From contig DURD01000027.1 of NCBI GenBank assembly GCA_012837435.1, positions 12,384 through 76,383 of the forward strand: a stretch of DNA of 64,000 nucleotides. The letters run 5' to 3'. The notes beneath the pieces are model-generated. The model had not been told where the DNA came from and searched no databases. It was given only the letters and a program-made list of their open reading frames with translations. Below, piece by piece: positions 10,788 through 51,514 of this stretch; the stretch's first letter is position 1; each line of letters starts with the position of its first letter. The stretch comes from Erysipelotrichaceae bacterium (GTDB lineage Bacteria > Bacillota_I > Bacilli_A > RFN20 > CAG-826). Made by a program: the position numbers and the translations under genes.

Positions 10788-10931
10788 GTCGCTCAGCCAA
10801 ACTTAATTAATTCTAGATTACTTGTTTGAAGCCTTAGGCACTGATAAAGGATTTAGATGCTATCTCTCTAACGATATTAAGGTTTAATATCTAATGACCG
10901 AGTATGCTTAAAATAAGGAATAACATTTATT

Positions 10932-11465
10932 ATGTACTACGTAGTTCAAGTTAAAACCGGAGATGAAGAAAAAACTATCGAGGCGATTAAAAGGCAACTA
11001 GGAAATAAAAAGGGCTTCGATGTTTTCGCACCGTACCGTAAAGTGCTAAGAAAATATCGCGGTGTTCAAAGAGAAGTTATTCAAAGATGTTTTCCTGGTT
11101 ATATCTTCGTGGAGACCGATCAACCCAAAGAGTTATTTTTTACTTTGTTCTTTACTCCTAAATATACGAAGATGTTAGGTCGAGAAGGTTTAACATATAA
11201 ATTTGTTCCTTTAAATAAAGATGAAGCGCGGATGATTGATATCTTATATAGCAAGAACAGCAATAGAGTTACAGAGATTAGCAACATCGAAGTCGAAGTG
11301 GGACAAAAGATTAAAGTTTTAGATGGTCCTCTTTCTGGCTTAGAAACCCAAATTAAGAAAGTAAATTTACATAAAAGAACAGTGACAGTTTCGTTTATGA
11401 TGTGCGGCAGACTAGTGGACGCTGATGTATCTATCAACATCATTACCGACATTATCAATAAATAA
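10932..11465 (+). CDS. NusG-family paralog (LoaP/UpxY-like specialised antiterminator)
   Basis: 177 aa. NGN-like N-terminus (MYYVVQVKTGDEEK...GYIFVE) plus a KOW-like GQKIKVLDGPLSGLETQIKKV. It lies inside the polysaccharide locus. Confidence 0.7.
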   Translation: MYYVVQVKTGDEEKTIEAIKRQLGNKKGFDVFAPYRKVLRKYRGVQREVIQRCFPGYIFVETDQPKELFFTLFFTPKYTKMLGREGLTYKFVPLNKDEARMIDILYSKNSNRVTEISNIEVEVGQKIKVLDGPLSGLETQIKKVNLHKRTVTVSFMMCGRLVDADVSINIITDIINK

Positions 11466-11477
11466 CATTCAGACATT

Positions 11478-13418
11478 ATGTCCAAAAGAGTTAAAGTTAA
11501 AAAATATCTATCTAACGTATCGATTAGATGGGCTCTAGTTTTTTATGACGTTTTGGTCTTTACCGCGGTCATGGCTCTAGCCCTAGTTCCGTATATGTAT
11601 TTAGAGCCAGAAATTGTTAATTATGATTGGCTCGATATCTTATGGCATTATCTAATCGGTTTAGGTTCGCTTTTATTAGGTAGATTATTATTTCACGTTT
11701 ATGGTCAAATCTGGCGATATGGTGGGGTCGGTTCATTTTTGAGATTGATACTGGCCGATACCGCGGCTTTGATACTATATTACGTTTTGCAATTAGTTAT
11801 TCCGGGCGTTGCAACTTTTAAATTTTTTGTCATCCTCGGACTTTTTGCCATCGATTTAGTCGTCATTCTGACTTTGAGAATGATGTATCGTTTCCTTTAT
11901 AAGAAACTTAATAGAAAAACTAAATTTGGTAGTTTCTTGACAAAAGCTATTAACTTTTTGGGCCGCTGCGATTGGTCTTTAGACGAAGGCAATTTTGGGA
12001 ACAAAATTAAAATCGCTATCTTAGGCGCGGGACGTTTAGGTACAAGTTTAGCCGAAGAATTATTAAACAATCCTAGCTCTTCTTATGAACCCGTTTGCTT
12101 TATCGATGCGGATAAAGAAAAGTTGGGTCGAGAAGTATATGGTAAAGAAGTATTAGAAAATAACGGAAACGCCATTAATCGATTGAAAAATGAATTCGGT
12201 GTTCAAGAAGTAGTATTTGCTCTCCCTTATCGAGACGATATTGATAGAAAAGGCTTATACGATAAATATAAAGCCGCGGGATTTAAGATTAAGTCCTATG
12301 ACTATCCGTCAATGCAGACCACGGGTAGAGGCAAGAGATCATTAAGAGATTTTGATGTGGAAGAATTATTGTTTAGAAAAGAACAAGAAGTCATCACAGA
12401 AGAAACAATCAACTATTATAAAGATAAAGTAGTTTTAATCACTGGTGGTGGGGGTTCGATAGGCGGAGAGTTATCTCGACAAATCGCCAGCATGGAACCT
12501 AAACAACTGGTGTTATTAGATATATATGAAAATGGGGTCTATGACATCCAACAAGAATTAAAGATTACCTATAATCACAAAATCAATTTGCAAATAGAAA
12601 TATGTTCCGTCACTAATTATGACGCTCTAGAAAGAGTATTTAAAACCTATAAACCCAATATCGTCATTATGGCGGCTGCGCATAAGCACGTCCCCCTCAT
12701 GGAACATAATGTCTGTGAAGCCATTGATAACAACGTCTTCGGGACTTTAAATACCGTGCTTCTCTCAGAAAAATATAAAGCCGATAGAGTACACATGGTC
12801 TCAACCGATAAAGCGGTTAATCCCACGAACGTCATGGGGGCCACGAAGAGAATGTGCGAGATGATTGTTTTAAATCACGCCGCTAGAAAGCAACATACTA
12901 CTTTCTCCGCGACGAGATTTGGTAACGTCCTTGGTAGTGCTGGTTCAGTAATACCCCTATTTAAAATGCAAATCGCTAATGGAGGTCCTGTAACCGTTAC
13001 TGATAAGAGAATCGTTAGATACTTCATGACTATACCAGAAGCCTCACAATTAGTGCTCCACTCAGTGACCATCGCTAAGAACGGCGAACTGATGGTATTA
13101 GATATGGGTCAACCCGTTAAGATCTATGAACTGGCGGTTAACATTATTAAACTCTCAGGCTTTGAACCAGGAAAAGACATCGAAATTAAAGAAACGGGAT
13201 TAAGACCAGGCGAGAAACTGTATGAAGAAATACTGACTAAATCAGAAACTCTAAAAAGCACCAAAAATAAGAAAATCTTTATTGAGAAAGATAAACCAAT
13301 CACTGACAGAGAGTTAGAAGAAAAACTAAACAAATTAAAAGAGGCTGTCGTTTCTAGAGACAATAAAATCGGTATTAAAGCACTACTAGAGTGTGTTCCC
13401 ACATACAAAGAATTATGA
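11478..13418 (+). CDS. CapD/PglF-like membrane-bound UDP-sugar 4,6-dehydratase
   Basis: N-terminal TM helices; Rossmann ITGGGGSIG; STDKAVNPTNVMGATKR catalytic region. Confidence 0.85.
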   Translation: MSKRVKVKKYLSNVSIRWALVFYDVLVFTAVMALALVPYMYLEPEIVNYDWLDILWHYLIGLGSLLLGRLLFHVYGQIWRYGGVGSFLRLILADTAALILYYVLQLVIPGVATFKFFVILGLFAIDLVVILTLRMMYRFLYKKLNRKTKFGSFLTKAINFLGRCDWSLDEGNFGNKIKIAILGAGRLGTSLAEELLNNPSSSYEPVCFIDADKEKLGREVYGKEVLENNGNAINRLKNEFGVQEVVFALPYRDDIDRKGLYDKYKAAGFKIKSYDYPSMQTTGRGKRSLRDFDVEELLFRKEQEVITEETINYYKDKVVLITGGGGSIGGELSRQIASMEPKQLVLLDIYENGVYDIQQELKITYNHKINLQIEICSVTNYDALERVFKTYKPNIVIMAAAHKHVPLMEHNVCEAIDNNVFGTLNTVLLSEKYKADRVHMVSTDKAVNPTNVMGATKRMCEMIVLNHAARKQHTTFSATRFGNVLGSAGSVIPLFKMQIANGGPVTVTDKRIVRYFMTIPEASQLVLHSVTIAKNGELMVLDMGQPVKIYELAVNIIKLSGFEPGKDIEIKETGLRPGEKLYEEILTKSETLKSTKNKKIFIEKDKPITDRELEEKLNKLKEAVVSRDNKIGIKALLECVPTYKEL

Positions 13419-34454: not shown

Positions 34455-34487
34455 AAACCTCTCGCACACCATCGCGAGAGGTTTTTT
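34455..34487 (+). terminator. Strong Rho-independent terminator closing the capsule locus
   Basis: 11-bp stem AAACCTCTCGC (34455-34465) / GCGAGAGGTTT (34474-34484), 8-nt loop, T-run. Confidence 0.8.
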
Positions 34488-34660: not shown

Positions 34661-34725
34661 CGGTATGTCTAAAAATTCTTGTGTTTGTCCCAGTGTTTTT
34701 ATATTATGTAATCGAGGGTTATGTT

Positions 34726-35763
34726 ATGAAGAAAAAAAACGTATTGAATTTAATCAGATATCATTCTGAAAAAAATGATTTACAGTTCAATAATGAAGCT
34801 ATGGAAATTGCCCGATATTTCGATAGGATTGGAGACTATCAATTGTCTGAATACATTATGGCGTTAATAACTAATACAAACACTTTTGTGCCTCAGAATG
34901 AATCTTTTGAGGGATCCTTCTTTAAGCGGGTAGAGCTAAACAATAATCCTCTTCCTTTGCCTAAATCGATTGCAAATGATGTTTTGGGAATTATCAATGC
35001 AATTAATCACAAAGTAGGAGTAAATAAGTTTTTATTTCAAGGTGCTCCAGGAACAGGCAAAACTGAAACAGTTAAGCACATAGCAAGATTATTAGAACGT
35101 CAATTATACATGATTGAGTTTAGTGCATTGGTGGATAGCAAACTTGGTCAAACTGCAAAAAACATGACTTCTATGTTTGATGAAATAAATAAATTACCAA
35201 ATCCCCAAAACATTGTTATTTTATTTGATGAATTAGACGCTATTGCAATGGATAGAATTAACATTAACGACCTAAGAGAAATGGGACGTGTAACATCTAC
35301 ATTGCTCAAAGAACTAGACAAACTAAATGAGGACATTGTATTAATAGCTACCACAAATCTATATGATAAGTTTGACAAAGCATTAATTAGAAGATTTGAT
35401 TCAGTTATAGATTTCAACAGATATTCTAGAGAAGATTTGATTGAGATTTCAGAATCAATTTTTCATAGTCTAGTAAAGAAATTTAAAAACGTTAGTAGAG
35501 AAACGAGGTTGTTAAAGAAAATCATTAATCAAATGGAAACGATACCTTATCCAGGCGATTTAAATAATCTCATTAAAACATCACTGGCATTTAGTGATCC
35601 TAATGATGAATACGATTACTTAAGAAGGCTAATAAAAAACATATCGCCTAAAAGTAATGAATTATCGCCAAAGAATCTTAGCGAAAAAGGTTTTACAGTG
35701 AGAGAAATTGAAATACTCAGTGGCATATCTAAAAGTAAAGTCGCTAGAGAATTGAAGGGGTAA
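34726..35763 (+). CDS. Classic AAA+ ATPase with C-terminal HTH (IetA-like)
   Basis: The ATG at 34726 follows a GAGGG RBS. Walker A GAPGTGKT, Walker B ILFDELD, sensor-1 ATTN, RRFD arginine region. The C-terminal GFTVREIEILSGISKSKVAREL looks like an HTH. Confidence 0.8.
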   Translation: MKKKNVLNLIRYHSEKNDLQFNNEAMEIARYFDRIGDYQLSEYIMALITNTNTFVPQNESFEGSFFKRVELNNNPLPLPKSIANDVLGIINAINHKVGVNKFLFQGAPGTGKTETVKHIARLLERQLYMIEFSALVDSKLGQTAKNMTSMFDEINKLPNPQNIVILFDELDAIAMDRININDLREMGRVTSTLLKELDKLNEDIVLIATTNLYDKFDKALIRRFDSVIDFNRYSREDLIEISESIFHSLVKKFKNVSRETRLLKKIINQMETIPYPGDLNNLIKTSLAFSDPNDEYDYLRRLIKNISPKSNELSPKNLSEKGFTVREIEILSGISKSKVARELKG

Positions 35764-35769
35764 AATAAA

Positions 35770-38007
35770 ATGAATGAACTATTGCATTTAAAAGGACATT
35801 TTACTCAAAAATCACGACCAGGTGGCATTGGATCTCCGCAACTTAGAGGAGGCGCTCGCGTTAGTGTTGATGATCTAAAAAAACTCTATGATGACTTATC
35901 GAAAATGTTGTCTTTTTGGTCTGAAAATAAATTGTTTGATGGTGCACTAGTTAGTGCATATTACAATAAGGTCGCAGCAAAGAGCAATAGAATATCAGCT
36001 CTTTTATCAAGTGGTTCGAAAACCTCAGAAGAAACCATAGTGGGTGCAAGATTTTCTGATGACAAAGAAGGAAAACATATTATTACTCACTTTGTATCAC
36101 TCAAAGCTATTGAAAATTCAATGGTTTTTTTATCTGAAACTAGCCACATTTTAGAAAAGGAGTTTGGAGGTTCCATCATTGCTTCGGCATTTAATGAAAA
36201 AAATAACATAAATCGTATTAATTTTAAAAAATATAATATTTCAAAAACAAATTTCCAAAAAGTAATTGTCGACTCATCCTATATAGAAAAGTTCGATGTT
36301 CAATATAATAAGTTTGATTTAGATAAAAAATCGGTAATAACAGTATATGAGACTAATAGGGATATTAGAGAAGTTCTCAAAAGTTTGGGAATTGAAGTTT
36401 TTGATAACAAAATTATAGATAACACAACAATTTTGCTCGAGAGAGAACAAATAGAGAGCTTAATAGATAAAGCGCCATTTTTAATAGCGATGGCAACTGA
36501 AGATTTATCAAAAATAATGCCTTTCAAATCTAGTGAAACAAAAAACCAGTATGAAGCTTACATACCTCCACCAACTAACGAACCAATTGTTGGGGTGATT
36601 GATACATTATTTTTTAAAGATGTGTATTTTTCAGAATGGGTTGAATATCACCGGATTCTTGATAAAAATATTGAGGCCCACCCAGAGGATTATTCACACG
36701 GAACTGCTGTATCATCAATTATTGTCGATGGACCCGCTTTGAATCCAGATTTAGAGGATGGATGTGGAAGATTCAGAGTAAGACATTTTGGTGTGTCCAC
36801 TGGTGGTAAATTTAGTTCCTTTTCAATTATTAAATCGATTAAAGAAATTGTAAAAAATAACAAAGATATTAAAGTATGGAATTTGTCTTTAGGATCTGCT
36901 GATGAGGTTAATAAGAATTTCATTTCTTTAGAAGGATCTGTCTTGGATCAACTTCAATACGAAAATGATGTAATTTTTGTTGTTTCTGCTACAAATCAAA
37001 GTGCTAAAGAACCCCTAAAAAAGATAGGGTCTCCAGCAGATTCCATTAATTCTGTTGTCGTTAGTTCGGTTGGTAAAAATAATCGCCCAGCACCTTATTC
37101 AAGAAAAGGAATAGTGCTGTCATTTTTCACAAAACCTGATGTTGGTTATTATGGTGGCGTTTGTCCAGAATACATCAATGTATGTGAACCGTTGGGACTA
37201 ACAAAGGTAGGTGGCAGTTCTTACGCAGCCCCCTGGATATCTAGAAAACTAGCGTACCTTATTAATATTTTAGGTTTTAACAAAGAAATAGCGAAAGCGT
37301 TATTGATTGATGCGGCTATGGGATGGAATCCTAAAAAATATTACAAGAATCTAGCTCTTGTTGGGCACGGAATAGTTCCGACACATATCAATGACATTAT
37401 TTATTCTCCAAAAGATGAAATTAAATTTGTTGTATCCGGTATTTCTGAAAAATATGATACGTACAGTTACAAATTTCCTGTGCCTCTTAATAATAACAAG
37501 TACCCATATTTGGCTAAAGCAACATTGTGTTATTTTCCAAAATGTTCTAGAAATCAAGGTGTTGATTATACAAATACTGAACTAGATTTGTATTTTGGCA
37601 GGATAGATGGAAACTTAATTAAATCGCTTGATAATAATAGGCAAAGCACCGATGACGATGGTGACATACCACATTATATTACCGAAAAATTTGCCCGTAA
37701 AGAATTTCGAAAATGGGATAATGTCAAGCATATTCAAGATGAAATAAAAGGCAGAATCGCCGCTAGAAAATCCTATGATTATAAGTTGTGGGGTATGTCT
37801 GTAAAAAGAAAAGAACGTTTAGCAAGCAAAGATGGAGTAGGTATTAGATTTGGAGTAGTAGTAACTTTAAAAGAAATTAATGGTGTCAATAGAATTGATG
37901 ATTTTATTCAACTATGTAACTTAAGTGGCTGGTTAGTAAATAAAGTTGATGTACAAACTAAAATCGATATATACCAAAAATCTTACGAAGATATTGAATT
38001 TGAATAA
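35770..38007 (+). CDS. Cytoplasmic S8 (subtilisin-family) serine peptidase with large N- and C-terminal extensions (IetS-like)
   Basis: D-H-S triad in canonical order: VGVIDT, HGTAVSS, (NLSLGS), GGSSYAAPW. No signal peptide. 6-nt gap after the ATPase gene. Confidence 0.85.
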   Translation: MNELLHLKGHFTQKSRPGGIGSPQLRGGARVSVDDLKKLYDDLSKMLSFWSENKLFDGALVSAYYNKVAAKSNRISALLSSGSKTSEETIVGARFSDDKEGKHIITHFVSLKAIENSMVFLSETSHILEKEFGGSIIASAFNEKNNINRINFKKYNISKTNFQKVIVDSSYIEKFDVQYNKFDLDKKSVITVYETNRDIREVLKSLGIEVFDNKIIDNTTILLEREQIESLIDKAPFLIAMATEDLSKIMPFKSSETKNQYEAYIPPPTNEPIVGVIDTLFFKDVYFSEWVEYHRILDKNIEAHPEDYSHGTAVSSIIVDGPALNPDLEDGCGRFRVRHFGVSTGGKFSSFSIIKSIKEIVKNNKDIKVWNLSLGSADEVNKNFISLEGSVLDQLQYENDVIFVVSATNQSAKEPLKKIGSPADSINSVVVSSVGKNNRPAPYSRKGIVLSFFTKPDVGYYGGVCPEYINVCEPLGLTKVGGSSYAAPWISRKLAYLINILGFNKEIAKALLIDAAMGWNPKKYYKNLALVGHGIVPTHINDIIYSPKDEIKFVVSGISEKYDTYSYKFPVPLNNNKYPYLAKATLCYFPKCSRNQGVDYTNTELDLYFGRIDGNLIKSLDNNRQSTDDDGDIPHYITEKFARKEFRKWDNVKHIQDEIKGRIAARKSYDYKLWGMSVKRKERLASKDGVGIRFGVVVTLKEINGVNRIDDFIQLCNLSGWLVNKVDVQTKIDIYQKSYEDIEFE

Positions 38008-38023: not shown

Positions 38024-38173
38024 ATGGTTAGAAAAATAAGATCTGACGCTACCGTTGGCATTGTTGAAAAAACTCGTGGCCTTCCACCAGGCACCATAAG
38101 AAATAAAAATGGTAGAGACACTCGAAGTGATAAAACAGTAAAAACCATTCGAAAAGAATCGGGCAAAAAATAG
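38024..38173 (+). CDS. 49-aa highly basic protein with an internal RSDxTV repeat
   Basis: AAAGGAG RBS (38009-38015) lies 8 nt before the ATG at 38024, 16 nt after the peptidase stop. Sequence: MVRKIRSDATVGIVEKTRGLPPGTIRNKNGRDTRSDKTVKTIRKESGKK. Confidence 0.5.
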   Translation: MVRKIRSDATVGIVEKTRGLPPGTIRNKNGRDTRSDKTVKTIRKESGKK

Positions 38174-38367
38174 TTCTCTTGGCAATTTATAACTGGATAA
38201 AAGTTTAAAACTCAGAAGCAAATTGTTCGAAGCAAAAGCGCTTTTGAATAATGTGGTTCGTTTTACCTTAATTAATTATTAACAATTTACTTAGGAATGA
38301 TGCGAAACAACAAACAACAACAATTTTAGTAGACGACAATAAAATGTAAAAGGGAGGATATTTGTTT

Positions 38368-40296
38368 ATGGCATTATTTGATAGAAACAGCATAATCGGA
38401 TCAGAGTACGATTGGTTTAAAGATAAATTAGATCCAAGTTTTTCAATAGATGATGGACCAGAATCAAAAGTTATTTTTGGCTATAATGGCATCGGAAAAA
38501 CAACAATATTTAAATGTCTAAAAGAATTAAACAATAGTCTCGTTGATTTTTTAGATTATGACGAAGTTAAAGATTCCGTAAAGAAACAAAAAACAAATTT
38601 AACTATTGCAACAAACATCACTCAAATCGAAGAGATAAAAACAGAAATAGATAATCTAAAAACTTCGGTTGATTTAAAAAAAATCATTAATGAAAAAATT
38701 GGAATTACAAATGCTACTACTGCAAAAAAATTCGGAAGTAGAATTCAAGAAGTTCAAAAAGATGGAACTTTTGATGGATTTAAAAAGACGCAATCAGAAA
38801 TTGGTGAGGTAGAAAATCTTGTGGGAGACATTTCTCCCAAAGTCTTTTTTGAGATTCAGGAAGAATTATCTTCTGTGGTTGACGCAAAAGATGAATTAGA
38901 AAAAGAGAAGAAAAGACTTCTTTTTGCAGCGCTAGAAAACATAAACGAAACGCTAGATTCTAACGATAACGTTTGTCCTGTTTGTAATAGTCACATCGCT
39001 GATATTAAACAAGTGGTTCAAGATAAGATGAATTCATTAAGTAAGGTTAAATCAGATTTAATTTTGAAACTAAAAAAGTCAAACTATAGTGTAGATTCAA
39101 ATAAAATTAAGGAATTGGCGGAGGCATATGAATTAGTTAGCAATGACGATGATTTAAAAGCTGAATACATAGTATGTGGCGGCCTTTCATCTAATTATCC
39201 TGATATAACGAATAATCATAACAAAATCACAAAATCGAAATCGCAATTATCTGTTTTATTGGAACAGGCTGAAGACAGTTTTCGAAATGTTCAAAAAGTT
39301 ATTGATTTTCTAAAATCTGATTTAGAAAAATATTTTCATGTTGAACCAAAAAATGTTAAAACAGATTCTGAAAATTATTCTTTTTCCATTAAGTTTCCGA
39401 GAGAGACAAAAACTTACAGCACTGGTGAACTTAACTTAATTTGTTTTCTATTTAAGATGTATTCGTTCATAGGTAGCGATAAAACTACTATGATTTTTGA
39501 TGATCCAGTGTCAAGTTTAGACTTTATAAATCATTACAAAATTGCTTACGAGATTGTAAAAAATGCTAAGCCAAAAAAGACTATGGTAGTGTTGACGCAC
39601 TCCGTGGAGTTAATCAACTCAATTAATTCGCAGCATAAAGGATTTTTCAAATTTTACTATTTAGAAGAACGCAAGGGTACTTTAAGTATTCAAGAAATCT
39701 CCAAATCATACACGATAAAAGAGAATCCCAATATCATTACGTTAGACAATTTGCCTGAAATTAGTCAATTTAATGGGTTAATTGAAGCGCTTAAACGCAG
39801 AGAAACAAAGTCACAGAGGGATGGGAATTCGCTATATAAGTTGTTTCATTATACTGTAGAAGCTCAGCATCTCGACAATGATTTTTCAAAATTTTCTAAC
39901 CATAGTTTAATTAATTTAATTGACAGTTTCAAAGGATTTTCTGGTTCTGATTTTTTCACAAATTCAGCAGAAAAGATTATTCACCTAGTGGCACTTAGAG
40001 TATGGCTTGAAAAAAAGCTCTATGATTTAATACCTAGTGAAAGCAAAGATCTTAAGGATGAATTTTTATCAACTGATTCGCTTGGTGGAAAAATAAATCT
40101 CCTTTTGCCTCTTGATAAACTACCGTTAATTTCAACTCAGAGTGGCTTGAGTCGAGATGCTCTAATGAGCAAAAAAGTAATGTTAAATCAAAATATGCAT
40201 TACGATAGTCAAATAATGCCTTTTGCATACGCAATTAATTTATCATTTGATATGATTGAAGAGGAGATTGGGGAATTCAAGAAGTTGTTGCCATAA
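38368..40296 (+). CDS. ABC/SMC-like ATPase with coiled-coil insert and CxxC zinc hook (AAA_13; RloC/PrrC-like)
   Basis: GGGAGG RBS. Walker A GYNGIGKTT, a roughly 300-aa coiled-coil-like insert carrying CPVCNS, signature-like YSTGELNL, Walker B MIFDDPVSSLD, H-loop LTHS. The C-terminal region has RVWLE ... NQNMH. Confidence 0.6.
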   Translation: MALFDRNSIIGSEYDWFKDKLDPSFSIDDGPESKVIFGYNGIGKTTIFKCLKELNNSLVDFLDYDEVKDSVKKQKTNLTIATNITQIEEIKTEIDNLKTSVDLKKIINEKIGITNATTAKKFGSRIQEVQKDGTFDGFKKTQSEIGEVENLVGDISPKVFFEIQEELSSVVDAKDELEKEKKRLLFAALENINETLDSNDNVCPVCNSHIADIKQVVQDKMNSLSKVKSDLILKLKKSNYSVDSNKIKELAEAYELVSNDDDLKAEYIVCGGLSSNYPDITNNHNKITKSKSQLSVLLEQAEDSFRNVQKVIDFLKSDLEKYFHVEPKNVKTDSENYSFSIKFPRETKTYSTGELNLICFLFKMYSFIGSDKTTMIFDDPVSSLDFINHYKIAYEIVKNAKPKKTMVVLTHSVELINSINSQHKGFFKFYYLEERKGTLSIQEISKSYTIKENPNIITLDNLPEISQFNGLIEALKRRETKSQRDGNSLYKLFHYTVEAQHLDNDFSKFSNHSLINLIDSFKGFSGSDFFTNSAEKIIHLVALRVWLEKKLYDLIPSESKDLKDEFLSTDSLGGKINLLLPLDKLPLISTQSGLSRDALMSKKVMLNQNMHYDSQIMPFAYAINLSFDMIEEEIGEFKKLLP

Positions 40297-40940: not shown

Positions 40941-42284
40941 ATGAAATTAAGTATTATTATCCCTTGTTATAATGAAGCTAAAGATATTGCTAAAAATGTG
41001 GATATCGTTAAAGAATATCTTTCTATTCATAACATTGAACATGAACTAATTCTTGTCAACGATGGTAGCAAAGATAACACTAAAGAAATAATAGAATCTA
41101 TTCCTGATGTTACCGCTTTATCGTATGAACCGAATAGGGGCAAAGGAGGAGCGGTCAAATACGGAATAGAACAGGCGACTGGCGATTATGTTTTATTCAT
41201 GGATGCGGATTTATCGACAGATTTATCCGCGATAGAAAAAGTTATAGAACTCATTCCTTCCTATGACTTTATTTTAGGTTCAAGACATGCGAAAGGGAGT
41301 GTTATCAAAAAGAAACAACCTTTACTGAGAGTCTTTATCGGTTGGGGTTGTCGAGTCATCGTCAATATGATGTTCCGTTTAAAGCTTAAAGATACTCAAT
41401 GTGGTTTTAAAGCGATAAGAACGGAAGTGGCTAAAAAGATTGTTTCTAAACAATTAATCAATGACTTTGCTTTTGATGTTGAATATATCTATATCGCTAA
41501 ACTAAACAAGATATCCATGTATGAACTAGGTATTACCTGGTCCGATGATCGAGATAGTAAAGTCTCTCCTTTTAGATCATCTGTCAAGTTCTTTAAAGAT
41601 TTAGCTTTTATTAAAAGGAATAAGAAATATTATCCTTTTGATAGTCAGGAACAAGTTAACACTCATTCTGGTAAGGGTGTCGTAGTGTTAATGGTTTCTT
41701 TAATCATTATTCTAGTCGCAGTCTTTATCGCTTTCTTGTTCGTTCAACATAATGAAGACAATACTCAAAGTAGCCAATCCGATAATCTAATTAATGAAAC
41801 AATCAATAATAAGTTTATCGATGTGGTTAATGACCAAATCGAAGCGGATGGTTTTGCTATCGATAATATAAAAACCATTAGTGCAGCTTTTATCACTGAT
41901 AACTATCCCACTAATTTCAGTTTAAATATCGCTTGTCATAGCGAAGATAATGTCTATATCTATAAACTCATAGATTATCCTTATCTTAACGATAACGATG
42001 ATACTGCGATTGAATATTTATTAAACAATAATGAACTCGATTTAAATCAAGGTGTGATTTTAACAAAATATTCATTAGATAAAGAAGTTAGAGATGATAA
42101 TAAAATATATAAATACATAACTTACAACAATAAATTCAGTGGTTATTACCTTAATAACAACGTCTATCAAATATACTTTAATCTTCCGTATGTAGATGAT
42201 AATAATCTATTCCAAAACCCCGCTAGTTTTAATGTTGATCAAGATAATCAGCTATATAGTTATTATTCTTACCTTAATCAATAA
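40941..42284 (+). CDS. GT2 polyprenyl-phosphate glycosyltransferase-like enzyme fused to a TM helix and an N/D/Y-rich C-terminal domain
   Basis: IIIPCYNEA, NDGSKDNT and DADLSTD motifs. TM helix VVVLMVSLIIILVAVFIAFLFV, then about 185 aa with no recognisable motif. Confidence 0.8.
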   Translation: MKLSIIIPCYNEAKDIAKNVDIVKEYLSIHNIEHELILVNDGSKDNTKEIIESIPDVTALSYEPNRGKGGAVKYGIEQATGDYVLFMDADLSTDLSAIEKVIELIPSYDFILGSRHAKGSVIKKKQPLLRVFIGWGCRVIVNMMFRLKLKDTQCGFKAIRTEVAKKIVSKQLINDFAFDVEYIYIAKLNKISMYELGITWSDDRDSKVSPFRSSVKFFKDLAFIKRNKKYYPFDSQEQVNTHSGKGVVVLMVSLIIILVAVFIAFLFVQHNEDNTQSSQSDNLINETINNKFIDVVNDQIEADGFAIDNIKTISAAFITDNYPTNFSLNIACHSEDNVYIYKLIDYPYLNDNDDTAIEYLLNNNELDLNQGVILTKYSLDKEVRDDNKIYKYITYNNKFSGYYLNNNVYQIYFNLPYVDDNNLFQNPASFNVDQDNQLYSYYSYLNQ

Positions 42285-42459: not shown

Positions 42460-43596
42460 ATGAAACTACTAAAGTTAAAAGTTTTAAGCGACTATAAAAT
42501 GTTGAAAAAGGGATTTGAGATTAATTTTTTAACTAAAACAAGAGTGAATAAAAATTCTGATAATGATGATCTAATTGAATTAGAACCAGGTTTTTATTAT
42601 CCAGTAGAAACGGCATTCGTCGGAAAGAATTCTTCTGGCAAAACAACGACACTATCTTTTATTAGAACGGTTATGTATTTTTTGCGTTCTGGTAGAATCA
42701 GTTCTGATTTTCTTATTGAACAATTCAAATTTTCTTTTGAATGCTTATTTTACTATGATAAAACAATCTACAAGTATTATGGCGAATTTGAAAAAAATGA
42801 ATTAGTAAATAGAGATTACTTAATTATCAAAGATGAAATGTTGCAAAAGGCTATCTATAGGAAAAATTACACAAAAGATTTGAGTAATGCAAATTTTAAG
42901 AAAGATGAGCAGTTTGTTCCTAATATTAACGGAGATACATCCAGTATTTCAAAAAAACGCTTAATTGATTTTTCTATTTCGATTGACACTCTTGAAGGAG
43001 ATGAAACAAGCTTATTCATTATCGGTAATCGCATTGATGAAATTTATGGAAAAGAAGTCTTTAAAACTCTGATTAATATGTTCGACGACAGCATTGAATA
43101 CATCAAAAAAACAAAGGGAAATAATGATAACGCAGAATGTATTTTTAAACGTATCAATAAACCAGAAAAATATGTTGATTTTTCTTACCTAAGAAATCAT
43201 TTATCAGCGGGTACCTATCGCGGTCTTTACTTATTCGCCGCTTCAATTTTGGCTTTTAATTATGGGGGCACCATTTTAATTGATGAAATTGAAAGGAGTT
43301 TTAACAAGAATTTAATCGAAAATTTATTCATGCTATTTAGAGATAAACGCATCAATAAAAAAGGGGCATCCATTATCTATTCAACCCATTATGCTGAACT
43401 GCTGGATACTAGTGATAGATGTGATAACATCAACGTACTTCATAGAAATGGTGATTCTATTACCGTGAACAACATGCATTCCAGTTATAAAGTGAGAACG
43501 GATTTATCTAAATCTAGTCAGTTCGAGCAAAATGCTTTTGATAATCACATTAATTACGAAAAATTAATGGATTTGAGGAGAAATCTTATCAAATGA
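42460..43596 (+). CDS. ABC-type (AAA_21-like) ATPase
   Basis: Walker A GKNSSGKTT, signature-like LSAGTYRG, Walker B ILIDEIERSF, H-loop STHYAE. Confidence 0.75.
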   Translation: MKLLKLKVLSDYKMLKKGFEINFLTKTRVNKNSDNDDLIELEPGFYYPVETAFVGKNSSGKTTTLSFIRTVMYFLRSGRISSDFLIEQFKFSFECLFYYDKTIYKYYGEFEKNELVNRDYLIIKDEMLQKAIYRKNYTKDLSNANFKKDEQFVPNINGDTSSISKKRLIDFSISIDTLEGDETSLFIIGNRIDEIYGKEVFKTLINMFDDSIEYIKKTKGNNDNAECIFKRINKPEKYVDFSYLRNHLSAGTYRGLYLFAASILAFNYGGTILIDEIERSFNKNLIENLFMLFRDKRINKKGASIIYSTHYAELLDTSDRCDNINVLHRNGDSITVNNMHSSYKVRTDLSKSSQFEQNAFDNHINYEKLMDLRRNLIK

Positions 43597-44099
43597 AAAT
43601 AATCTTAGCGTGTGAAGGTCAAACGGAAGTATATCTGCTCGAGAATTTGATTAATAGAGGATATTTACATTTTGGAAACGATTTACTTTTGGATAAACCA
43701 ATCAAGCTAAGACAATTAAAAGAAATTGAATCTATCATTAATACTCTTCCAATAGATGAATACATTGATATTTATCGTATCGGAGATACTCTGAAAGAAA
43801 AATTAAGTAAAAAAGGCTTTGAACTTCGTGAAAAACACATCAAAGAGATAAAAATCTGTACAAAAACTGAAATTGAGATTCTCGTGATTATTAACGAAAA
43901 TCTTTTGGATGAGTATGAGAAAAATAAGAATACTATAAAACCCAAACAATTTATTAAACAACACATTAAAAATTTTGATCCAAAAGAATATTTTGATAAA
44001 CACGATATGTATCCCGCTATTTGTGAGTACAAAAGAATTAAACAACATAAAAAAGATGAGTGGTGTTTAAAAGACTTAATCGATAAATTTTCTAAATGA
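43593..44099 (+). CDS. Small RloB/DUF4276-like (TOPRIM-related) partner protein
   Basis: ATGA overlap with the ATPase gene. The N-terminal MKIILACEGQTEVYLLENL resembles the EGxTE start of the RloB/DUF4276 families, with a later TEIEILVII. The assignment is tentative. Confidence 0.45.
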   Translation: MKIILACEGQTEVYLLENLINRGYLHFGNDLLLDKPIKLRQLKEIESIINTLPIDEYIDIYRIGDTLKEKLSKKGFELREKHIKEIKICTKTEIEILVIINENLLDEYEKNKNTIKPKQFIKQHIKNFDPKEYFDKHDMYPAICEYKRIKQHKKDEWCLKDLIDKFSK

Positions 44100-44215: not shown

Positions 44216-44593
44216 ATGAATTATCAAAATCATCCTATGAAAATATCGTATCGAAATAAGAAAGATGAAAAATTATGTAACAACACTAAAACCGCTATTA
44301 AGAAAATGGGAAAGGAAGTGGCTTACAAATTAGCGGACCTACTAAACTTAATTGAATCATTTCCAAATCTTAAAAGTTTATGGGGAATGCCTCAATACCG
44401 CTTGCATGCACTTAAGGGTAATCGCCAACATCAATATTCGCTTGTTATTAGTAAATCAAGTGGATGGAGATTAATAGTGTATCCGCTTGATGAAGATGGA
44501 AATTTTTTGAAAGCTGGTAATAAGGAAATGGAAATGCTAGCAAAAGCGGTCAATGTGGAAATTGTGGAGGTCAGTAATCATTATGAGGAATAA
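44216..44593 (+). CDS. HigB-like (plasmid-killer/RelE-fold) toxin
   Basis: YRLHALKGNRQHQYSLVISKSSGWRLIV resembles the HigB signature (L.G....qySirin..wRi.F), and the protein ends in ...IVEVSNHYEE. The true start may be the ATG at 44237. Confidence 0.6.
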   Translation: MNYQNHPMKISYRNKKDEKLCNNTKTAIKKMGKEVAYKLADLLNLIESFPNLKSLWGMPQYRLHALKGNRQHQYSLVISKSSGWRLIVYPLDEDGNFLKAGNKEMEMLAKAVNVEIVEVSNHYEE

Positions 44594-45668
44594 AGAAGGA
44601 AGAGTAGTCAATCATCCCGGTGTCTATTTAAAAGACGCAATGGAAGAACTGGGTTTAAACCAATCTGAATTTGCCTTGAGAACCGGGTTATCAACTAAAA
44701 ACGTTTCAACTCTTGTCAATGGGGAAAGCGATATTACTTTTGATGTTGCTGTCAGACTTGCCGCATTTTTTAATAACGAAGTAGAAGGGTGGATTAATTT
44801 GCAAACAAAATACAACTTATACAAATATAGAGAAAAAAGAGAAAAAGAACTTGAAGAAGAATGGCGAATTGTCCAAATGTTTAACAAAGAATTTTTATCC
44901 AAATGTTGCAATGTTACCATCAATAATGAAAATAAAGAAAAAACGATTAGTGAGATGAGAAATGTTTTTAGGGTTGGAACTCTACAAGCACTAAAAAAAG
45001 ATGATATGTATGCATTTTGTAAAACTAGCGTCAAAAAAGACATTGATGAAAAAACGATTATTCTAAGAAATGCTTGGATATCTATCGCAGAAACAGTTGC
45101 TAGAGATATAAAGTGTTCTACTTTTGATAAAGACAAAATTATTAGTGAAGTACCATTTTTGAGAAGTTTGACATTAAAAAGACCAGAAGAATTTCAGCCA
45201 TTATTAAAATCATTCCTAGCTAGTGCTGGAGTTAAACTCGTTATTTTACCTTATTTATCTAATAGCAACGTCAGTGGTGTGACAAAATGGATGAGAGATG
45301 ATAATAGTGTCATGGTCGCGATTAATGACTGTGGGAAAGTAGCTGATAGAATATGGTTTTCAATTTTTCATGAACTGGGTCACGCTATTAGGAACCACAA
45401 GCGTCATTTAACAATATCTTACGAAAAAAATAAGATTGAGGATGAAGATGAAAAGGCTGCTAATAAGTTTGCTCAAGATAGTTTGATTGATCCTATAGCA
45501 TATAGTGATTTTGTAGCTAAACGACATTTTGATTTGAGCAGTATCGATCGTTTTGCCGAGCAACAAGGAGTTGCGGATTTTATCGTTATTGGAAGACTTA
45601 AGAAAGATAAAATTTTAGGTTGGACACAATATCAAAACAGGATAGTTAAATATTCTGTAGTGAATTGA
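44583..45668 (+). CDS. HigA-type XRE HTH fused to an ImmA/IrrE (COG2856) zinc metallopeptidase
   Basis: The ATG at 44583 overlaps the toxin stop. HTH HPGVYLKDAMEELGLNQSEFALRTGLSTKNVSTLVNG. HEXXH motif HELGHA in the C-terminal domain. Confidence 0.8.
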   Translation: MRNKEGRVVNHPGVYLKDAMEELGLNQSEFALRTGLSTKNVSTLVNGESDITFDVAVRLAAFFNNEVEGWINLQTKYNLYKYREKREKELEEEWRIVQMFNKEFLSKCCNVTINNENKEKTISEMRNVFRVGTLQALKKDDMYAFCKTSVKKDIDEKTIILRNAWISIAETVARDIKCSTFDKDKIISEVPFLRSLTLKRPEEFQPLLKSFLASAGVKLVILPYLSNSNVSGVTKWMRDDNSVMVAINDCGKVADRIWFSIFHELGHAIRNHKRHLTISYEKNKIEDEDEKAANKFAQDSLIDPIAYSDFVAKRHFDLSSIDRFAEQQGVADFIVIGRLKKDKILGWTQYQNRIVKYSVVN

Positions 45669-46199: not shown

Positions 46200-46210
46200 G
46201 TAATTTGACT

Positions 46211-47224
46211 ATGGAAAATAATTTTTATAATGAAATAAAAAGCATATTGATAAATGCAAGAAACAAAGTTTATACTACAGCTAATTTTGCTATGGTTGAG
46301 GCATATTGGAATATAGGTAAAAAAATCATCGAGGAACAGAGCGGCAAGGATACCGCAGAATATGGACAAGGATTAATTAAAGAATTATCGAAGCAAATGA
46401 CCAAAGACTTCGGTAAAGGATTTACAGTTACAAATTTAAAATACATGCGTCAATTTTATCTCACATTTCCAAATGGTCACGCACTGCGTGGCGAATTGAG
46501 CTGGACACATTATCGCAGTTTGATACGTGTAGAAAATGAAAACGCAAGAAACTTTTATTTAGAAGAAGCCATAAAATCTAATTGGAGTACGAGACAACTT
46601 GACAGACAGATAAACAGTTTTTTCTATGAAAGACTCTTATCAAGCCAAAATAAAGAAGAGGTGTCAAAAGAGATACTGAAACTGGAGAAAAGTAAGACAC
46701 CGGAAGACATCATAAGAGATCCGTACGTGTTGGAGTTTTTAGGTTTAGAGCCAAATACCGATTTTTATGAAAGTGATTTGGAACAAGCTTTAATAACTCA
46801 TTTGCAGAAGTTTCTTCTAGAATTAGGCAGAGGATTTTCCTTTGTTGCAAGGCAGAAAAGATTCACATTTGACGGGAGGCATTTCAGAATTGACCTCGTT
46901 TTCTATAACTATATTTTAAAATGCTTTGTTTTAATAGATTTGAAGATTGGAGATTTAACACACCAAGATTTAGGACAAATGCAGATGTATATTCATTATT
47001 ACGAAAGAGAAATGATGAATGAAGGAGACAATCCGCCGATAGGAATTATCTTATGTGCTGATAAAAGTGATTTGGTTGTTAAATACACTTTACCTAAAGA
47101 TGAAAAACAAATATTTGCATCCAAATATAAATTATATCTGCCAAGTGAAGAAGAACTATTGAATGAATTAAATAAAGAGTATTTATCAATGGAAAGGTAT
47201 ATTGATAAGAAAAAAAGAAAATGA
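46211..47224 (+). CDS. YhcG/DUF1016 PD-(D/E)xK nuclease-family protein
   Basis: DUF1016-type N-terminus (NARNKVYTTANFAMVEAYWNIGKKI). C-terminal nuclease core RIDLVFYN...FVLIDLKIG...GQMQMY. Confidence 0.8.
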   Translation: MENNFYNEIKSILINARNKVYTTANFAMVEAYWNIGKKIIEEQSGKDTAEYGQGLIKELSKQMTKDFGKGFTVTNLKYMRQFYLTFPNGHALRGELSWTHYRSLIRVENENARNFYLEEAIKSNWSTRQLDRQINSFFYERLLSSQNKEEVSKEILKLEKSKTPEDIIRDPYVLEFLGLEPNTDFYESDLEQALITHLQKFLLELGRGFSFVARQKRFTFDGRHFRIDLVFYNYILKCFVLIDLKIGDLTHQDLGQMQMYIHYYEREMMNEGDNPPIGIILCADKSDLVVKYTLPKDEKQIFASKYKLYLPSEEELLNELNKEYLSMERYIDKKKRK

Positions 47225-47537: not shown

Positions 47538-48656
47538 ATGGCAGTTTTAACAATTGAATTTGATAACTTTCTTTGTTTCGACAACTTTGTAGCGGATTTT
47601 ACCTATCCTAAAAAATTGGTCAATAGTTCTTTAAAAAACGAATGTTTGAAAAAATTTCCAAATATAAGGGTCAGGAAGGCAAATATCATCATAGGTTCTA
47701 ATGCTTCTGGCAAGACGTCTTTTGGTCGAGCGATATGGCATGTTTTCATGTTCTTGAAAAATAAAGAAGCAATTAAGATTACGAGCTTGATAAAAAACGT
47801 GAATAAAGATACAAACATCTTAATGGATTATATTGATGCTGATGGTCTTTTTTCTCGTATTGAAATTTTGGCAAAGGCGAACAATCAAGGAATTGATGTC
47901 AAAATAAGACAACTGGAAGCAAAACCTAACGATACATATGAAATGCTAGTTAAGAGATTGCCAAACGATGTATTGTTCGAGAATTACATCGTCGCATTAG
48001 AAAAAATAATTCCTCTTGGGTGGAATTTTGTTTTTCCTTCTATCGAAAGCGGTGGTTTTGAACTCATTTATTGTGATTTTATAAAAGAAGAAGAGAAACC
48101 TCTTTTTTGCAAAATATTTAAAAATGTCTTAATTATTATGGATGTTTCAATTAAAACGGTGTATCCATCCAACGAAGTTGAAAATTCATATATCATAGTT
48201 TTTGTCGATAATACCAAAATTCATATTTCTCATGGTGATAAAATTAATGAAATAAAAAAACTTTCGTCTGGGACTAAATATGCCGCTAACATTGCGCAAA
48301 TTTTATTTTGCATTTCTAAGTATAAAAATGGTTTTTATTTTGTGGATGAACAATTTTCGTATGTCAATTCAGACATAGAAATTGCTTGTTTGTCAAAAAT
48401 GATTTCTCTGTTAGGCGACAGCGAACAACTGTTCTTTACCACTCATAATACGGAAATATTGAATCTTAATCTCCCCATACATTCTTTCAATTTCCTAGTT
48501 AAAGAAAAAAATGAAGATGGTGTGCAAATTAAGTGGCTCAACGCTTCTCAATTTGAAAAAAGAAATAACGTGAGAATAAAAAATCTTTACGATAACAATT
48601 ATTTTGACATTAGTCCGAATGTTAACCCGATTTTTGACATTGGAGAAAGTTGTTGA
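47538..48656 (+). CDS. Orphan ABC-type (AAA_21-like) ATPase
   Basis: Walker A GSNASGKTS, signature-like LSSGTKYA, Walker B-like YFVDEQFSY, H-loop TTHNTE. Same size and motif order as the 42460 ATPase. Confidence 0.7.
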   Translation: MAVLTIEFDNFLCFDNFVADFTYPKKLVNSSLKNECLKKFPNIRVRKANIIIGSNASGKTSFGRAIWHVFMFLKNKEAIKITSLIKNVNKDTNILMDYIDADGLFSRIEILAKANNQGIDVKIRQLEAKPNDTYEMLVKRLPNDVLFENYIVALEKIIPLGWNFVFPSIESGGFELIYCDFIKEEEKPLFCKIFKNVLIIMDVSIKTVYPSNEVENSYIIVFVDNTKIHISHGDKINEIKKLSSGTKYAANIAQILFCISKYKNGFYFVDEQFSYVNSDIEIACLSKMISLLGDSEQLFFTTHNTEILNLNLPIHSFNFLVKEKNEDGVQIKWLNASQFEKRNNVRIKNLYDNNYFDISPNVNPIFDIGESC

Positions 48657-50135: not shown

Positions 50136-50227
50136 TGCAAAATATGGAATGAAACACTTGCAAAATATGGAATAAAATGTCTGCAAAATATGGAATGAAA
50201 CACTTGCAAAATATGGAATTGAGTTAT
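50136..50227. repeat. Four head-to-tail 23-bp direct repeats (core TGCAAAATATGGAAT)
   Basis: Units start at 50136, 50159, 50182 and 50205. Units 1 and 3 are identical (TGCAAAATATGGAATGAAACACT). Units 2 and 4 share the 15-nt core. Confidence 0.95.
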
Positions 50228-50232
50228 ATAAT
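50204..50232 (+). promoter_or_regulatory. Candidate promoter embedded in the last repeat
   Basis: TTGCAA (50204-50209), 17-nt spacer, TATAAT (50227-50232). Confidence 0.4.
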
Positions 50233-50251
50233 TCACTTGAGAATGATGAAT

Positions 50252-51514
50252 ATGACGAATATTAACTATCGAAAAAGATTAATTGAATCAAGAATTAAAA
50301 AGACAATGGGTTTCAGTGGTGGCGTAGTTATTGAGGGCGCCAAATGGGTCGGTAAATCAACTACCGCTAGTCTTTTTGCCAATACTATAGTAAAACTACA
50401 AAACCCAATAATTAGAGAAAAATATAAAGCCCTTGCAACCATTTCAAAAGAAAAAGTGCTGGAAGGTGAAAAACCTATTTTGTTTGACGAATGGCAAGAT
50501 GTTCCTGAAATATGGGATTTTATTCGGATTGATATCGATGAATATAATCATAAGGGAACCTATCTTCTAACGGGGTCAACAAGAAAACAAAACGTAAAAA
50601 CATCCCATACAGGAACAGGAAGAATTAACTCTGTTTATATGAGGCCGATGAGTCTATATGAAAGCGGTGAGTCTAATGGAAAGGTATCGCTAAATGATTT
50701 GTTTAATCATCCCGATAATATCCCCTCTATTTCCATGTCTACGATAAGCATTGATGAGATGGCAAAGCTAATTTGCAGAGGCGGATGGCCAGGAAGTCTC
50801 GATTTAGAAGAAGACTTCCAATTTGAGCTTCCCAAACATCTTTTAAAAAGCATTATCGAAAAAGACTCTGATGAAGTTGATGGAATATCTAAAGATAAAG
50901 AAAAATTAGCAAAAATTGTTAGAAGTTATGCCAGAAACATCTCTACCTTAGCAACAAATTCAACAATCTTTAAAGATCAATCATCTGAGGAAATAGTAAG
51001 TTTCAAAACCTTTGATACTTATGTGAACGCTCTAAAAAGATTGTTTATTGTAGAAGATGTTTTGCCGTGGTCTCCGAGCATTAGAAGTTCTTCAAGACTT
51101 AGAAAAGGTAGCAAAAGACAATTCGTAGATCCTAGTATTGCCGCTGCTGCTTTAGATATTTCTCCTAAGAAATTATTAAATGATTTTAAAACCTTTGGTT
51201 TTTTATTTGAATCAATTGTTACACGAGATGTCAGAATTTATTCAGAAGAAATTGGTGGTAAAGTTTATCATTACAATGATTCAACGGGATTGGAAGTCGA
51301 TTTAATTGTTGAATTAAGAGATGGTTCATGGGGAGGTATTGAAGTTAAGCTAGGTAGTAATGAATTAGATAAAGCGAGCGCTCATCTATTAAAACTAGCG
51401 GATATTTCTGAAGTTAAACCCTCATTTCTAATGATAGTGACTAATACTGAGATGGCCTATCAAAGAAAAGAAGATGGCATTTATGTTGTACCTCTTGGTT
51501 GTCTAGGGGCTTAA
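50252..51514 (+). CDS. AAA_14/DUF4143-family ATPase
   Basis: Walker A GAKWVGKST, Walker B ILFDEWQ, and a C-terminal DUF4143-like region. The start is moved to ATG 50252 because the ORF-track 5' end (50177) is made of the tandem repeats. Confidence 0.7.
   Translation: MTNINYRKRLIESRIKKTMGFSGGVVIEGAKWVGKSTTASLFANTIVKLQNPIIREKYKALATISKEKVLEGEKPILFDEWQDVPEIWDFIRIDIDEYNHKGTYLLTGSTRKQNVKTSHTGTGRINSVYMRPMSLYESGESNGKVSLNDLFNHPDNIPSISMSTISIDEMAKLICRGGWPGSLDLEEDFQFELPKHLLKSIIEKDSDEVDGISKDKEKLAKIVRSYARNISTLATNSTIFKDQSSEEIVSFKTFDTYVNALKRLFIVEDVLPWSPSIRSSSRLRKGSKRQFVDPSIAAAALDISPKKLLNDFKTFGFLFESIVTRDVRIYSEEIGGKVYHYNDSTGLEVDLIVELRDGSWGGIEVKLGSNELDKASAHLLKLADISEVKPSFLMIVTNTEMAYQRKEDGIYVVPLGCLGA

Follow-up and report, generated by a model that had tools for sequence, protein, structure and literature searches.

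In a 64,000-nucleotide (nt) stretch of contig DURD01000027.1 from an Erysipelotrichaceae bacterium (assembly GCA_012837435.1; this whole stretch is called the window), two adjacent genes encoding an AAA+ ATPase (IetA) and an S8 subtilase (IetS) were identified as an ietA-ietS pair. By analogy with characterized homologues, the pair probably constitutes an IetAS-type toxin-antitoxin module, with abortive-infection phage defence as its most likely role. The locus is an ordinary member of a large Gram-positive-type branch of IetAS and not a new variant. What is new here is a conserved pair of TGTCCC promoter repeats at a fixed spacing of 20-21 nt, found upstream of ietA in 69 of 77 related loci.

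As an earlier, preliminary description of this DNA had stated, the two genes lay 6 nt apart behind a terminator following polysaccharide genes (Table 1). The genes upstream of the terminator-like hairpin matched Polysacc_synt, Epimerase_2 and Epimerase/Polysacc_synt_C and belonged to a polysaccharide operon, which the hairpin would end, thereby isolating the ietAS promoter. The ietA open reading frame (ORF) could be read from a GTG at 34681; the ATG at 34726, with GAGGG 8 nt upstream, was the preferred start and coincided with that of all homologues, which begin MKK. The G+C content was 0.30-0.34 at ietAS, 0.29-0.36 across the neighbouring 20 kb and ~0.37 at the start of the window, a slight drop by which the “AT-rich islet” of the preliminary description was only mildly true.

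Both proteins were matched nearly end to end by PADLOC profiles. The best match of IetA was PDLC02196 (E 7e-40, residues 5-344 on positions 6-369 of the 374 in the profile), followed by three further IetA models (E 5e-31 to 2e-21), and that of IetS was PDLC02197 (E 4e-63, residues 194-733), with six further IetS models matching. The Pfam families named in the preliminary description were also found, AAA in residues 103-231 of IetA (E 1e-26) and Peptidase_S8 in residues 271-520 of IetS (E 1e-28). Together with the conserved gene order and the intact catalytic triad, these matches bore out its proposal of an ATPase and S8 protease pair of the IetAS type. Two PHROGs families annotated as of unknown function were closer than the PADLOC models and matched over the full length, phrog_3757 for IetA (E 8e-73) and phrog_3964 for IetS (E 1e-125), indicating that phages and prophages carry the pair too; ietAS relatives were found on plasmids and phages as well. 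Scores against the NCBIfam models were far below the cut-offs (IteA NF042959, 115.9 bits against 510; IteS NF042956, 163.1 against 900), and by direct alignment the window proteins were 22-26% identical to the pairs of Acidovorax (annotated iteA/iteS), Dongshaea, Agrobacterium and an E. coli phage. From the PADLOC matches, the low NCBIfam scores and this identity, the window pair is, judged by sequence, IetAS in the broad sense and belongs to a clade distinct from the proteobacterial one.

Exact copies of both proteins were traced to a metagenome-assembled genome of an Erysipelotrichaceae bacterium. Among the best 120 listed matches per protein, identity was 53-82%, most spanned the full length, a small number being partial or over-extended, and typical sizes were ~742-747 amino acids for IetS and ~345 for IetA. 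When one genome per species was scanned, at least 587 ietAS loci were confirmed. Hosts of the clade included Bacillota, Mollicutes, Fusobacteriota, Pasteurellaceae, Gilliamella, Campylobacter concisus, Saccharibacteria and one Bacteroidota genome. Gene order was compared in 80 species-level related loci: ietA was directly upstream of ietS in 77 of them, with 8-24 nt between the aligned segments, one (L082) was partly aligned, and two were cut by contig ends. Near-identical architecture at 50-55% identity was seen in the episymbiotic Saccharibacteria (L076, L077 and L082), Campylobacter concisus (L084), Pasteurellaceae (L021 and L046) and Butyricimonas (L014). Such similarity of architecture in distant phyla points to wide spread of the cassette and its promoter element by horizontal transfer.

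All motifs quoted in the preliminary description were present at the places it gave. In IetA these were GAPGTGKT (residue 106), ILFDELD (165), ATTN (208) and RRFD (222). Across six divergent pairs, Walker A (G106...K112-T113), Walker B (D168-E169), sensor-1 (T210-N211) and R222-R223 were invariant, as was a pore-loop-like K-L-G motif (S138/L140/G141) in the clade alignment. An AlphaFold2 model of IetA (predicted local distance difference test, pLDDT, 84) suggested a three-helix N-domain (residues 3-49), a flexible or disordered linker (51-62), a classic-clade AAA+ core and a C-terminal helix-turn-helix (HTH). Foldseek searches with this model returned only generic AAA+ proteins and no solved IetA structure, the best matches being proteasomal Rpt, Rix7, TRIP13, katanin, FtsH, Vps4, p97, spastin and Msp1. 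A profile of the N-domain gave no significant match in Pfam or PDB; this domain is at best tentatively MIT/TPR-like.

The C-terminal tail of IetA, GFTVREIEILSGISKSKVAREL (residues 322-343), had been noted as HTH-like in the preliminary description, and this proved real: three helices were modelled (315-320, 325-332 and 336-344; pLDDT of the block 79-91), and a profile of the tail matched the HTH protein 2x48 in PDB at E 1.3e-5, as well as SpoIIID and Xre-type regulators. Pfam HTH_23 matched below threshold in 14 of 24 IetA tails. The tail was near-invariant (GFTvREIEiLTGvSKSQVsRELK) and the linker preceding it variable. The suggestion that a DNA-binding tail marked a distinct variant was ruled out, the tail being a family-wide feature: an F(T/S)xxxLxxxxGxSxxxI pattern aligned at the C-terminus in all five other IetA clades compared, including the protein annotated by NCBI as “anti-phage ATPase IteA”, and the PADLOC IetA profile spans it.

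In IetS, the triad motifs were VGVIDT (residue 274, with D278), HGTAVSS (310, with H310) and GGSSYAAPW (481, with S484), and D278, H310, N409 and S484 were invariant across six clades. Over both proteins, the Kyte-Doolittle mean of 19-residue segments stayed at or below 1.14, and neither N-terminus was hydrophobic, indicating that neither protein has a signal peptide or a membrane segment. The 745-residue partner was thus, as previously described, a subtilase with a complete triad and without a signal peptide. The same description had placed the triad between extensions of ~260 (N-terminal) and ~250 (C-terminal) residues lacking a known motif; no family could be assigned to either, and the lengths free of Pfam matches were ~270 and 225 residues. 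These extensions were not special to the window, as they aligned across all clades compared, with Y588, Y600, E639, K648 and W649 invariant; an insert at about residues 128-176 distinguished the window clade from the proteobacterial pairs.

An AlphaFold2 model of IetS (pLDDT 83, predicted template modelling score 0.84) was searched with Foldseek. Only generic subtilases and no solved IetS structure were returned, the top matches being pro-forms and/or subtilases with a C-terminal beta domain: ProN-Tk-SP (3afg; 552 aligned columns, target of 507 residues), KP-43, unprocessed pro-subtilisin E, Kex2, PCSK9 and S1P. Giant-virus proteins annotated “Peptidase inhibitor I9”, a 683-residue Caudovirales protein and faint jelly-roll capsid matches were also obtained, and profiles of the N- and C-terminal regions gave nothing below E 0.05 against solved structures. 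From the secondary-structure trace of the model, from which all domain ranges were taken, IetS appears to comprise an N-terminal domain (~1-180), a beta-alpha-beta-alpha-beta unit resembling a propeptide (~185-245), a linker modelled with low confidence (252-258), the S8 core (~268-530) and a C-terminal beta-sandwich (~545-745) carrying the invariant K648-W649. The likeness to pro-subtilisins with a C-terminal beta domain (Tk-SP 3afg, KP-43, kexin/furin and PCSK9) extended over ~480-560 columns; those enzymes undergo secretion and processing, in contrast to the cytoplasmic IetS, which has an additional N-terminal domain of ~180 residues.

The 250 nt upstream of ietA were compared in 77 loci. 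The 7-mers TGGGACA and GGGACAA (reverse complement of TTGTCCCA) occurred in 73 of the 77 regions, whereas in shuffled sets no 7-mer reached more than 31. At least one copy of the GTCCC core was present in 76 loci, and two coding-strand copies in 69, spaced by 20 nt in 35 loci and by 21 nt in 34. The consensus layout was TTTGTCCCAAA, ~9 nt often with TTGAC, TTTGTCCC(A/G), 4-6 nt and TGnTATAAT, with the second copy typically 33-59 nt before the ietA start codon. Exact TGTCCC pairs at this spacing were found 59 times in 1.16 Mb of these loci, 58 of them just upstream of ietA. The remaining pair was at ~5327 on the minus strand of a Rodentibacter rarus locus (L046), ~600 nt downstream of ietS, and may be a remnant or else belong to a second promoter under regulation. 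Because the remaining intergenic sequence was not conserved and the hosts span several phyla, the repeat element appears to travel with the cassette.

The two repeats bracketed the -35 box, and IetA carries the sole recognisable DNA-binding domain of the cassette, whose putative recognition helix (SKSQVSRELK) was almost invariant in the same loci. We infer that the repeats are an operator for the IetA HTH, which would give autorepression. A Macrococcus plasmid pair (IetA 48% identical), of a clade whose recognition helix differs, had the tail GISISTLSREVK and a different repeat, TTTTTCATTA, twice at a spacing of 20 nt. Among six outgroup loci, three carried identical words of 7 nt or more at a spacing of 20-21 nt, so short and AT-rich that chance is possible; chance could account for the short repeats 20-21 nt apart in the Dongshaea plasmid and E. 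coli phage loci, of the proteobacterial type. The odds are about even that in IetAS generally the antitoxin HTH would bind paired direct repeats two helical turns apart over its own promoter, in words differing from clade to clade. Neither the IetA HTH nor the promoter repeats were mentioned in the limited set of IetAS literature searched. In some database entries ietA was called 50-75 residues too long (L088, 4782-5993; P0151, 420 amino acids; P0233, 400 amino acids), from an in-frame upstream start that takes in the promoter and the TGTCCC repeats, so that the repeats could mark the true start.

IetAS was reportedly described as an anti-phage system by Gao et al. in 2020 and corresponds to “ietAS” in PADLOC and Gao_Iet in DefenseFinder. 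The window pair has in common with it the order of ATPase then S8 peptidase and, in each protein, an organization in three parts, to which the C-terminal HTH of IetA and the extensions of IetS belong. For the IetA/IetS pair of pTiC58, Yamamoto et al. in 2009 (J Bacteriol 191:4656) reportedly found protease activity essential and ATP binding important. This founding member, a serine-protease toxin with an AAA-ATPase antitoxin, resembles the window pair in its predicted roles; it is plasmid-borne, alphaproteobacterial and described for stability and incompatibility, and an Agrobacterium homologue was 22-23% identical to the window pair.

IetAS was initially discovered as a toxin-antitoxin pair that stabilises plasmids, its protease acting as toxin and its ATPase as antitoxin; defence depends on protease activity, an ietA-mutant construct was unobtainable, and the anti-phage mechanism “remains unknown” (PMC13069673). 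In the minimal Mycoplasma cell, knockout of the AAA ATPase _0132 was lethal unless the S8 peptidase _0133 was also removed (PMC6755753), and this 353/757-residue pair, like its homologues from three other mycoplasmas, was confirmed to function as a toxin-antitoxin module (PMC8562856). The Mycoplasma mycoides pair, TA132/133 (JCVISYN2_0132/_0133), was likened to the window pair (345/745 residues) by size and gene order and has a Mollicutes/Erysipelotrichia-related host range in common with it, and its protease is the toxin and its ATPase the antitoxin by experiment (PMC6755753, PMC8562856). For the Bacillus cereus m1293 system, abortive infection has been shown, with toxicity upon expression of its trigger, SPbeta YosG (bioRxiv 10.1101/2022.08.27.505566). 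The preliminary description had called unknown what triggers the pair, what the protease cleaves and what the ATPase does; since an antitoxin role of the ATPase and the YosG trigger have been published for homologues, this is partly out of date. The ietHAS system (Liu-DS4) has the IetA and IetS core in common with the window pair and, unlike it, an essential SNF2-family helicase gene; its defence, too, depends on the protease, and the construction of ietA mutants was unsuccessful (PMC13069673). No helicase gene was found beside the window ietAS, where the neighbour at 38362-40296 was a PDC-S06/AAA_21 match not shared by related loci. Two mechanistic analogues, which are not relatives, bear on the ATPase. 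In TRIP13-HORMA of the cyclic-oligonucleotide-based anti-phage signalling system (CBASS), an AAA+ remodeller keeps an immune effector off, and TRIP13 was among the best fold matches and the PADLOC matches of IetA; unlike that system, the window pair has no HORMA or cyclase partner. Type II antitoxins repress their own promoter through a DNA-binding domain, although an HTH fused to an AAA+ antitoxin would be unusual for type II.

On this basis, the following course of events is proposed. Unrestrained IetS, a cytoplasmic subtilase, would degrade cell or phage proteins and stop growth. IetA, made from the same transcript and encoded upstream, would keep IetS inactive in an ATP-dependent manner, probably by binding or continual remodelling, and the propeptide-like unit might contribute autoinhibition. 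Through its C-terminal HTH, IetA would bind the paired TGTCCC repeats around the -35 box and thereby act as a repressor of its own operon in the manner of type II antitoxins. A phage product would disturb the balance between IetA and IetS, and the released protease would bring about death or arrest of the cell before phage production. The module is directly supported by profile-level membership, intact catalytic and ATPase motifs, lack of an export signal, strict gene order, the HTH fold, the promoter repeats and the defence-island setting; the toxin and antitoxin roles, the need for the protease and abortive infection with a phage trigger are carried over from the homologues.

Several points weigh against this proposal. 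Besides the low NCBIfam scores, the window pair is only ~24% identical to proteobacterial IetAS, and defence was tested in E. coli and B. cereus homologues; the N-terminus of IetA differs from that of B. cereus m1293 IetA, in a comparison covering only the first ~500 nt. The propeptide-like unit was suggested by Foldseek alignments that are global and give no residue ranges. As for the operator, the degeneracy of the first repeat copy in the window (TGTCTA) may make repression weaker at this locus, and two proteobacterial loci had no exact repeat. The Mesomycoplasma hyorhinis pair (IetS 45% and IetA 48% identical to those of the window) had a diverged tail and no TGTCCC repeats. The N-terminal region of IetS could be the DNA binder instead.

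Two other roles for the pair were weighed. It might be mainly an addiction module that stabilises the island or a mobile element by post-segregational killing, with phage defence absent or incidental. The family was, after all, first described from the plasmid-stabilising pair of pTiC58 (cited in PMC13069673, PMC6755753), close relatives lie on plasmids beside ParA/ParB (L002) or RepB (L100), serine recombinases were the commonest neighbours of related pairs (7 of 132 proteins), and the Mycoplasma pair is a chromosomal toxin-antitoxin module without a known phage link (PMC8562856). However, phage protection and abortion of infection are established for the homologues of E. coli and B. cereus (PMC13069673; bioRxiv 10.1101/2022.08.27.505566), and near the window pair the neighbours were defence genes, with no recombinase or replication gene. 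We consider a mainly addictive role unlikely, and the two roles are not mutually exclusive. It is very improbable that IetA and IetS form an ATP-dependent protease, with an unfoldase feeding a peptidase as in Lon or ClpXP, for ordinary turnover or regulatory cleavage. The fold of IetA, a classic-clade AAA+ protein closest to proteasomal Rpt and FtsH, its invariant pore-loop-like motif and the tight coupling of the two genes would suit such a machine, but in homologues the peptidase is lethal alone and neutralised by the ATPase, contrary to what an obligate machine of unfoldase and peptidase would show (PMC6755753, PMC8562856, PMC13069673). Housekeeping is also a poor fit to the patchy horizontal distribution over many phyla at ~50-60% identity and to the setting in defence or mobile-element DNA.

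The toxin-antitoxin module might also be larger than two genes. A gene for a 49-residue basic protein (orf49) followed ietS by 16 nt in the window, behind a strong ribosome-binding site, and the same gene, again with a strong ribosome-binding site, stood 17-18 nt after ietS in two loci, L086 (3802-3951) and L088 (8247-8396), whose IetS proteins were 77% and 74% identical to that of the window. In all three of these closest lineages the genes further downstream were unrelated: a type I restriction system in L086 and an HTH_3 gene with a 727-residue gene in L088, DNA similarity ending at the orf49 stop codon. Between L086 and L088 (IetS 86% identical), orf49 had 12 synonymous and no non-synonymous codon changes, indicating that it is a real gene under strong purifying selection; relative to the window copy there were 14-15 synonymous and 5 non-synonymous changes. 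It is thus conceivable, though doubtful, that in the closest sub-clade the unit is ietA-ietS-orf49, with orf49 as a modulator such as a second antitoxin or a trigger adaptor. However, orf49 was not found after ietS in loci with IetS of 59% identity or less, and its family (386 clusters at 90% identity, 171 representatives at 50%) has members unlinked to ietAS: in Paracholeplasma brassicae one lies upstream of a type I restriction system, and Clostridia have them within recombinase/RNase_T/DUF1294 elements, at times as two copies. Further members were found in L090 (5001-5147) and in L092-L098. No match to orf49 was obtained in Pfam, NCBIfam, PHROGs or PADLOC.

The ietAS pair lay in a ~17-kb defence island (34.5-51.5 kb of the window; Table 1), after which housekeeping genes restarted with glutamate dehydrogenase. 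The preliminary description had suggested that the extra downstream genes could make the pair a distinct variant. They were ruled out as parts of the system: by tblastn against 85 loci, the 644-residue ATPase and the AbiLii-like partner were found in none, and the GT2 glycosyltransferase and the AbiLi-like ATPase in one each, indicating that these genes are independent neighbours, separate defence genes of the island. The small downstream ORF was also found in none of the 85, its query being too short for that test. The GT2 gene stood isolated between defence genes, with the polysaccharide operon 6.5 kb upstream of it; a surface-polysaccharide locus may have received the defence genes as an insertion. 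The two overlapping genes at 44216-45668 look like another defence or toxin-antitoxin module, and an aminotransferase gene lay between the PDC-S02 and PDC-S01 genes.

The two nearest ORFs on each side were scanned in 33 related loci (132 proteins, counted descriptively by family). Neighbours included type I restriction enzymes, AbiEi/AbiEii, a CBASS cyclase, DRT2, DolB, several PDC candidates, TIR proteins and serine recombinases, a set that fits a defence or mobile-element setting; some “mad3” matches among them were probably ABC transporters. In five loci of the Streptococcus mitis group (L059, L069, L072, L075 and L080), the same two ORFs followed ietS at ~10295-12279, which in these oral streptococci may reflect a fixed insertion site or a lineage-specific companion.

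Table 1. Features of the ietAS locus and the defence island (positions in the window)
Feature	Position	Strand	Remarks
Terminator-like hairpin	34455-34484		12-bp G+C-rich stem, 6 G-C pairs, T runs on both sides
Direct repeat copy 1 (TGTCTAA)	34666-34672	+	2 mismatches to TGTCCCA; 20 nt upstream of copy 2
Direct repeat copy 2 (TGTCCCA, perfect)	34686-34692	+	Between -35 and -10 regions; candidate operator half-site for the IetA HTH
Putative -10 box TATATT	34700-34705	+	Read from sequence
Putative ribosome-binding site GAGGG	34714-34718	+	Read from sequence
ietA	34726-35763	+	345 amino acids; AAA+ ATPase, predicted antitoxin
Predicted IetA C-terminal three-helix HTH	35668-35757 (residues ~315-344)	+	AlphaFold2 model, tail profile
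ietS	35770-38007	+	745 amino acids; cytoplasmic S8 subtilase, predicted toxin
orf49	38024-38173	+	49-residue basic protein; 16 nt after ietS stop; AAGGAG ribosome-binding site
PDC-S06-like ABC/SMC-like ATPase	38362-40296	+	644 amino acids; PADLOC PDC-S06 E 1e-14; weaker PtuA, LmuB; also AAA_21
GT2 glycosyltransferase	40941-42284	+	Predicted membrane segment; ~200-residue C-terminal extension rich in Asn/Tyr
AbiLi/AriA-like AAA_21 ATPase	42460-43596	+	E 5e-27
AbiLii-like partner	43593-44099	+	168 amino acids; overlaps AbiLi-like gene by 4 nt, as in AbiLi/AbiLii pairs; no family match
phrog_3066 “toxin of TA system”	44216-44593	+	E 4e-10; overlaps next gene
HTH_3 + Peptidase_M78 protein	44553-45668	+	371 amino acids; PD-Lambda-2_B, E 3e-23
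YhcG/DUF1016 PD-(D/E)xK nuclease	46205-47224	+	PDC-S02, E 6e-149
Second AbiLi/AriA-like AAA_21 ATPase	47538-48656	+	E 2e-20
AAA_14 + DUF4143 ATPase	50177-51514	+	PDC-S01, E 1e-61

IetAS is a validated defence system, and the present locus adds no new architecture to it. Its uniform clade exposed two features at the level of the family, the C-terminal HTH of the antitoxin ATPase and the paired promoter repeats at 20-21 nt, to which the propeptide-like reading of the protease may be added. If the HTH and the repeats interact, they would offer a handle on the control of protease expression and release, and the cis-element signature could improve the annotation of ietAS operons and their start codons. 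Should this be true in IetAS generally, the family would represent an AAA+-based toxin-antitoxin with transcriptional feedback, and DNA-bound IetA hexamers might sense phage-induced changes in DNA or transcription.

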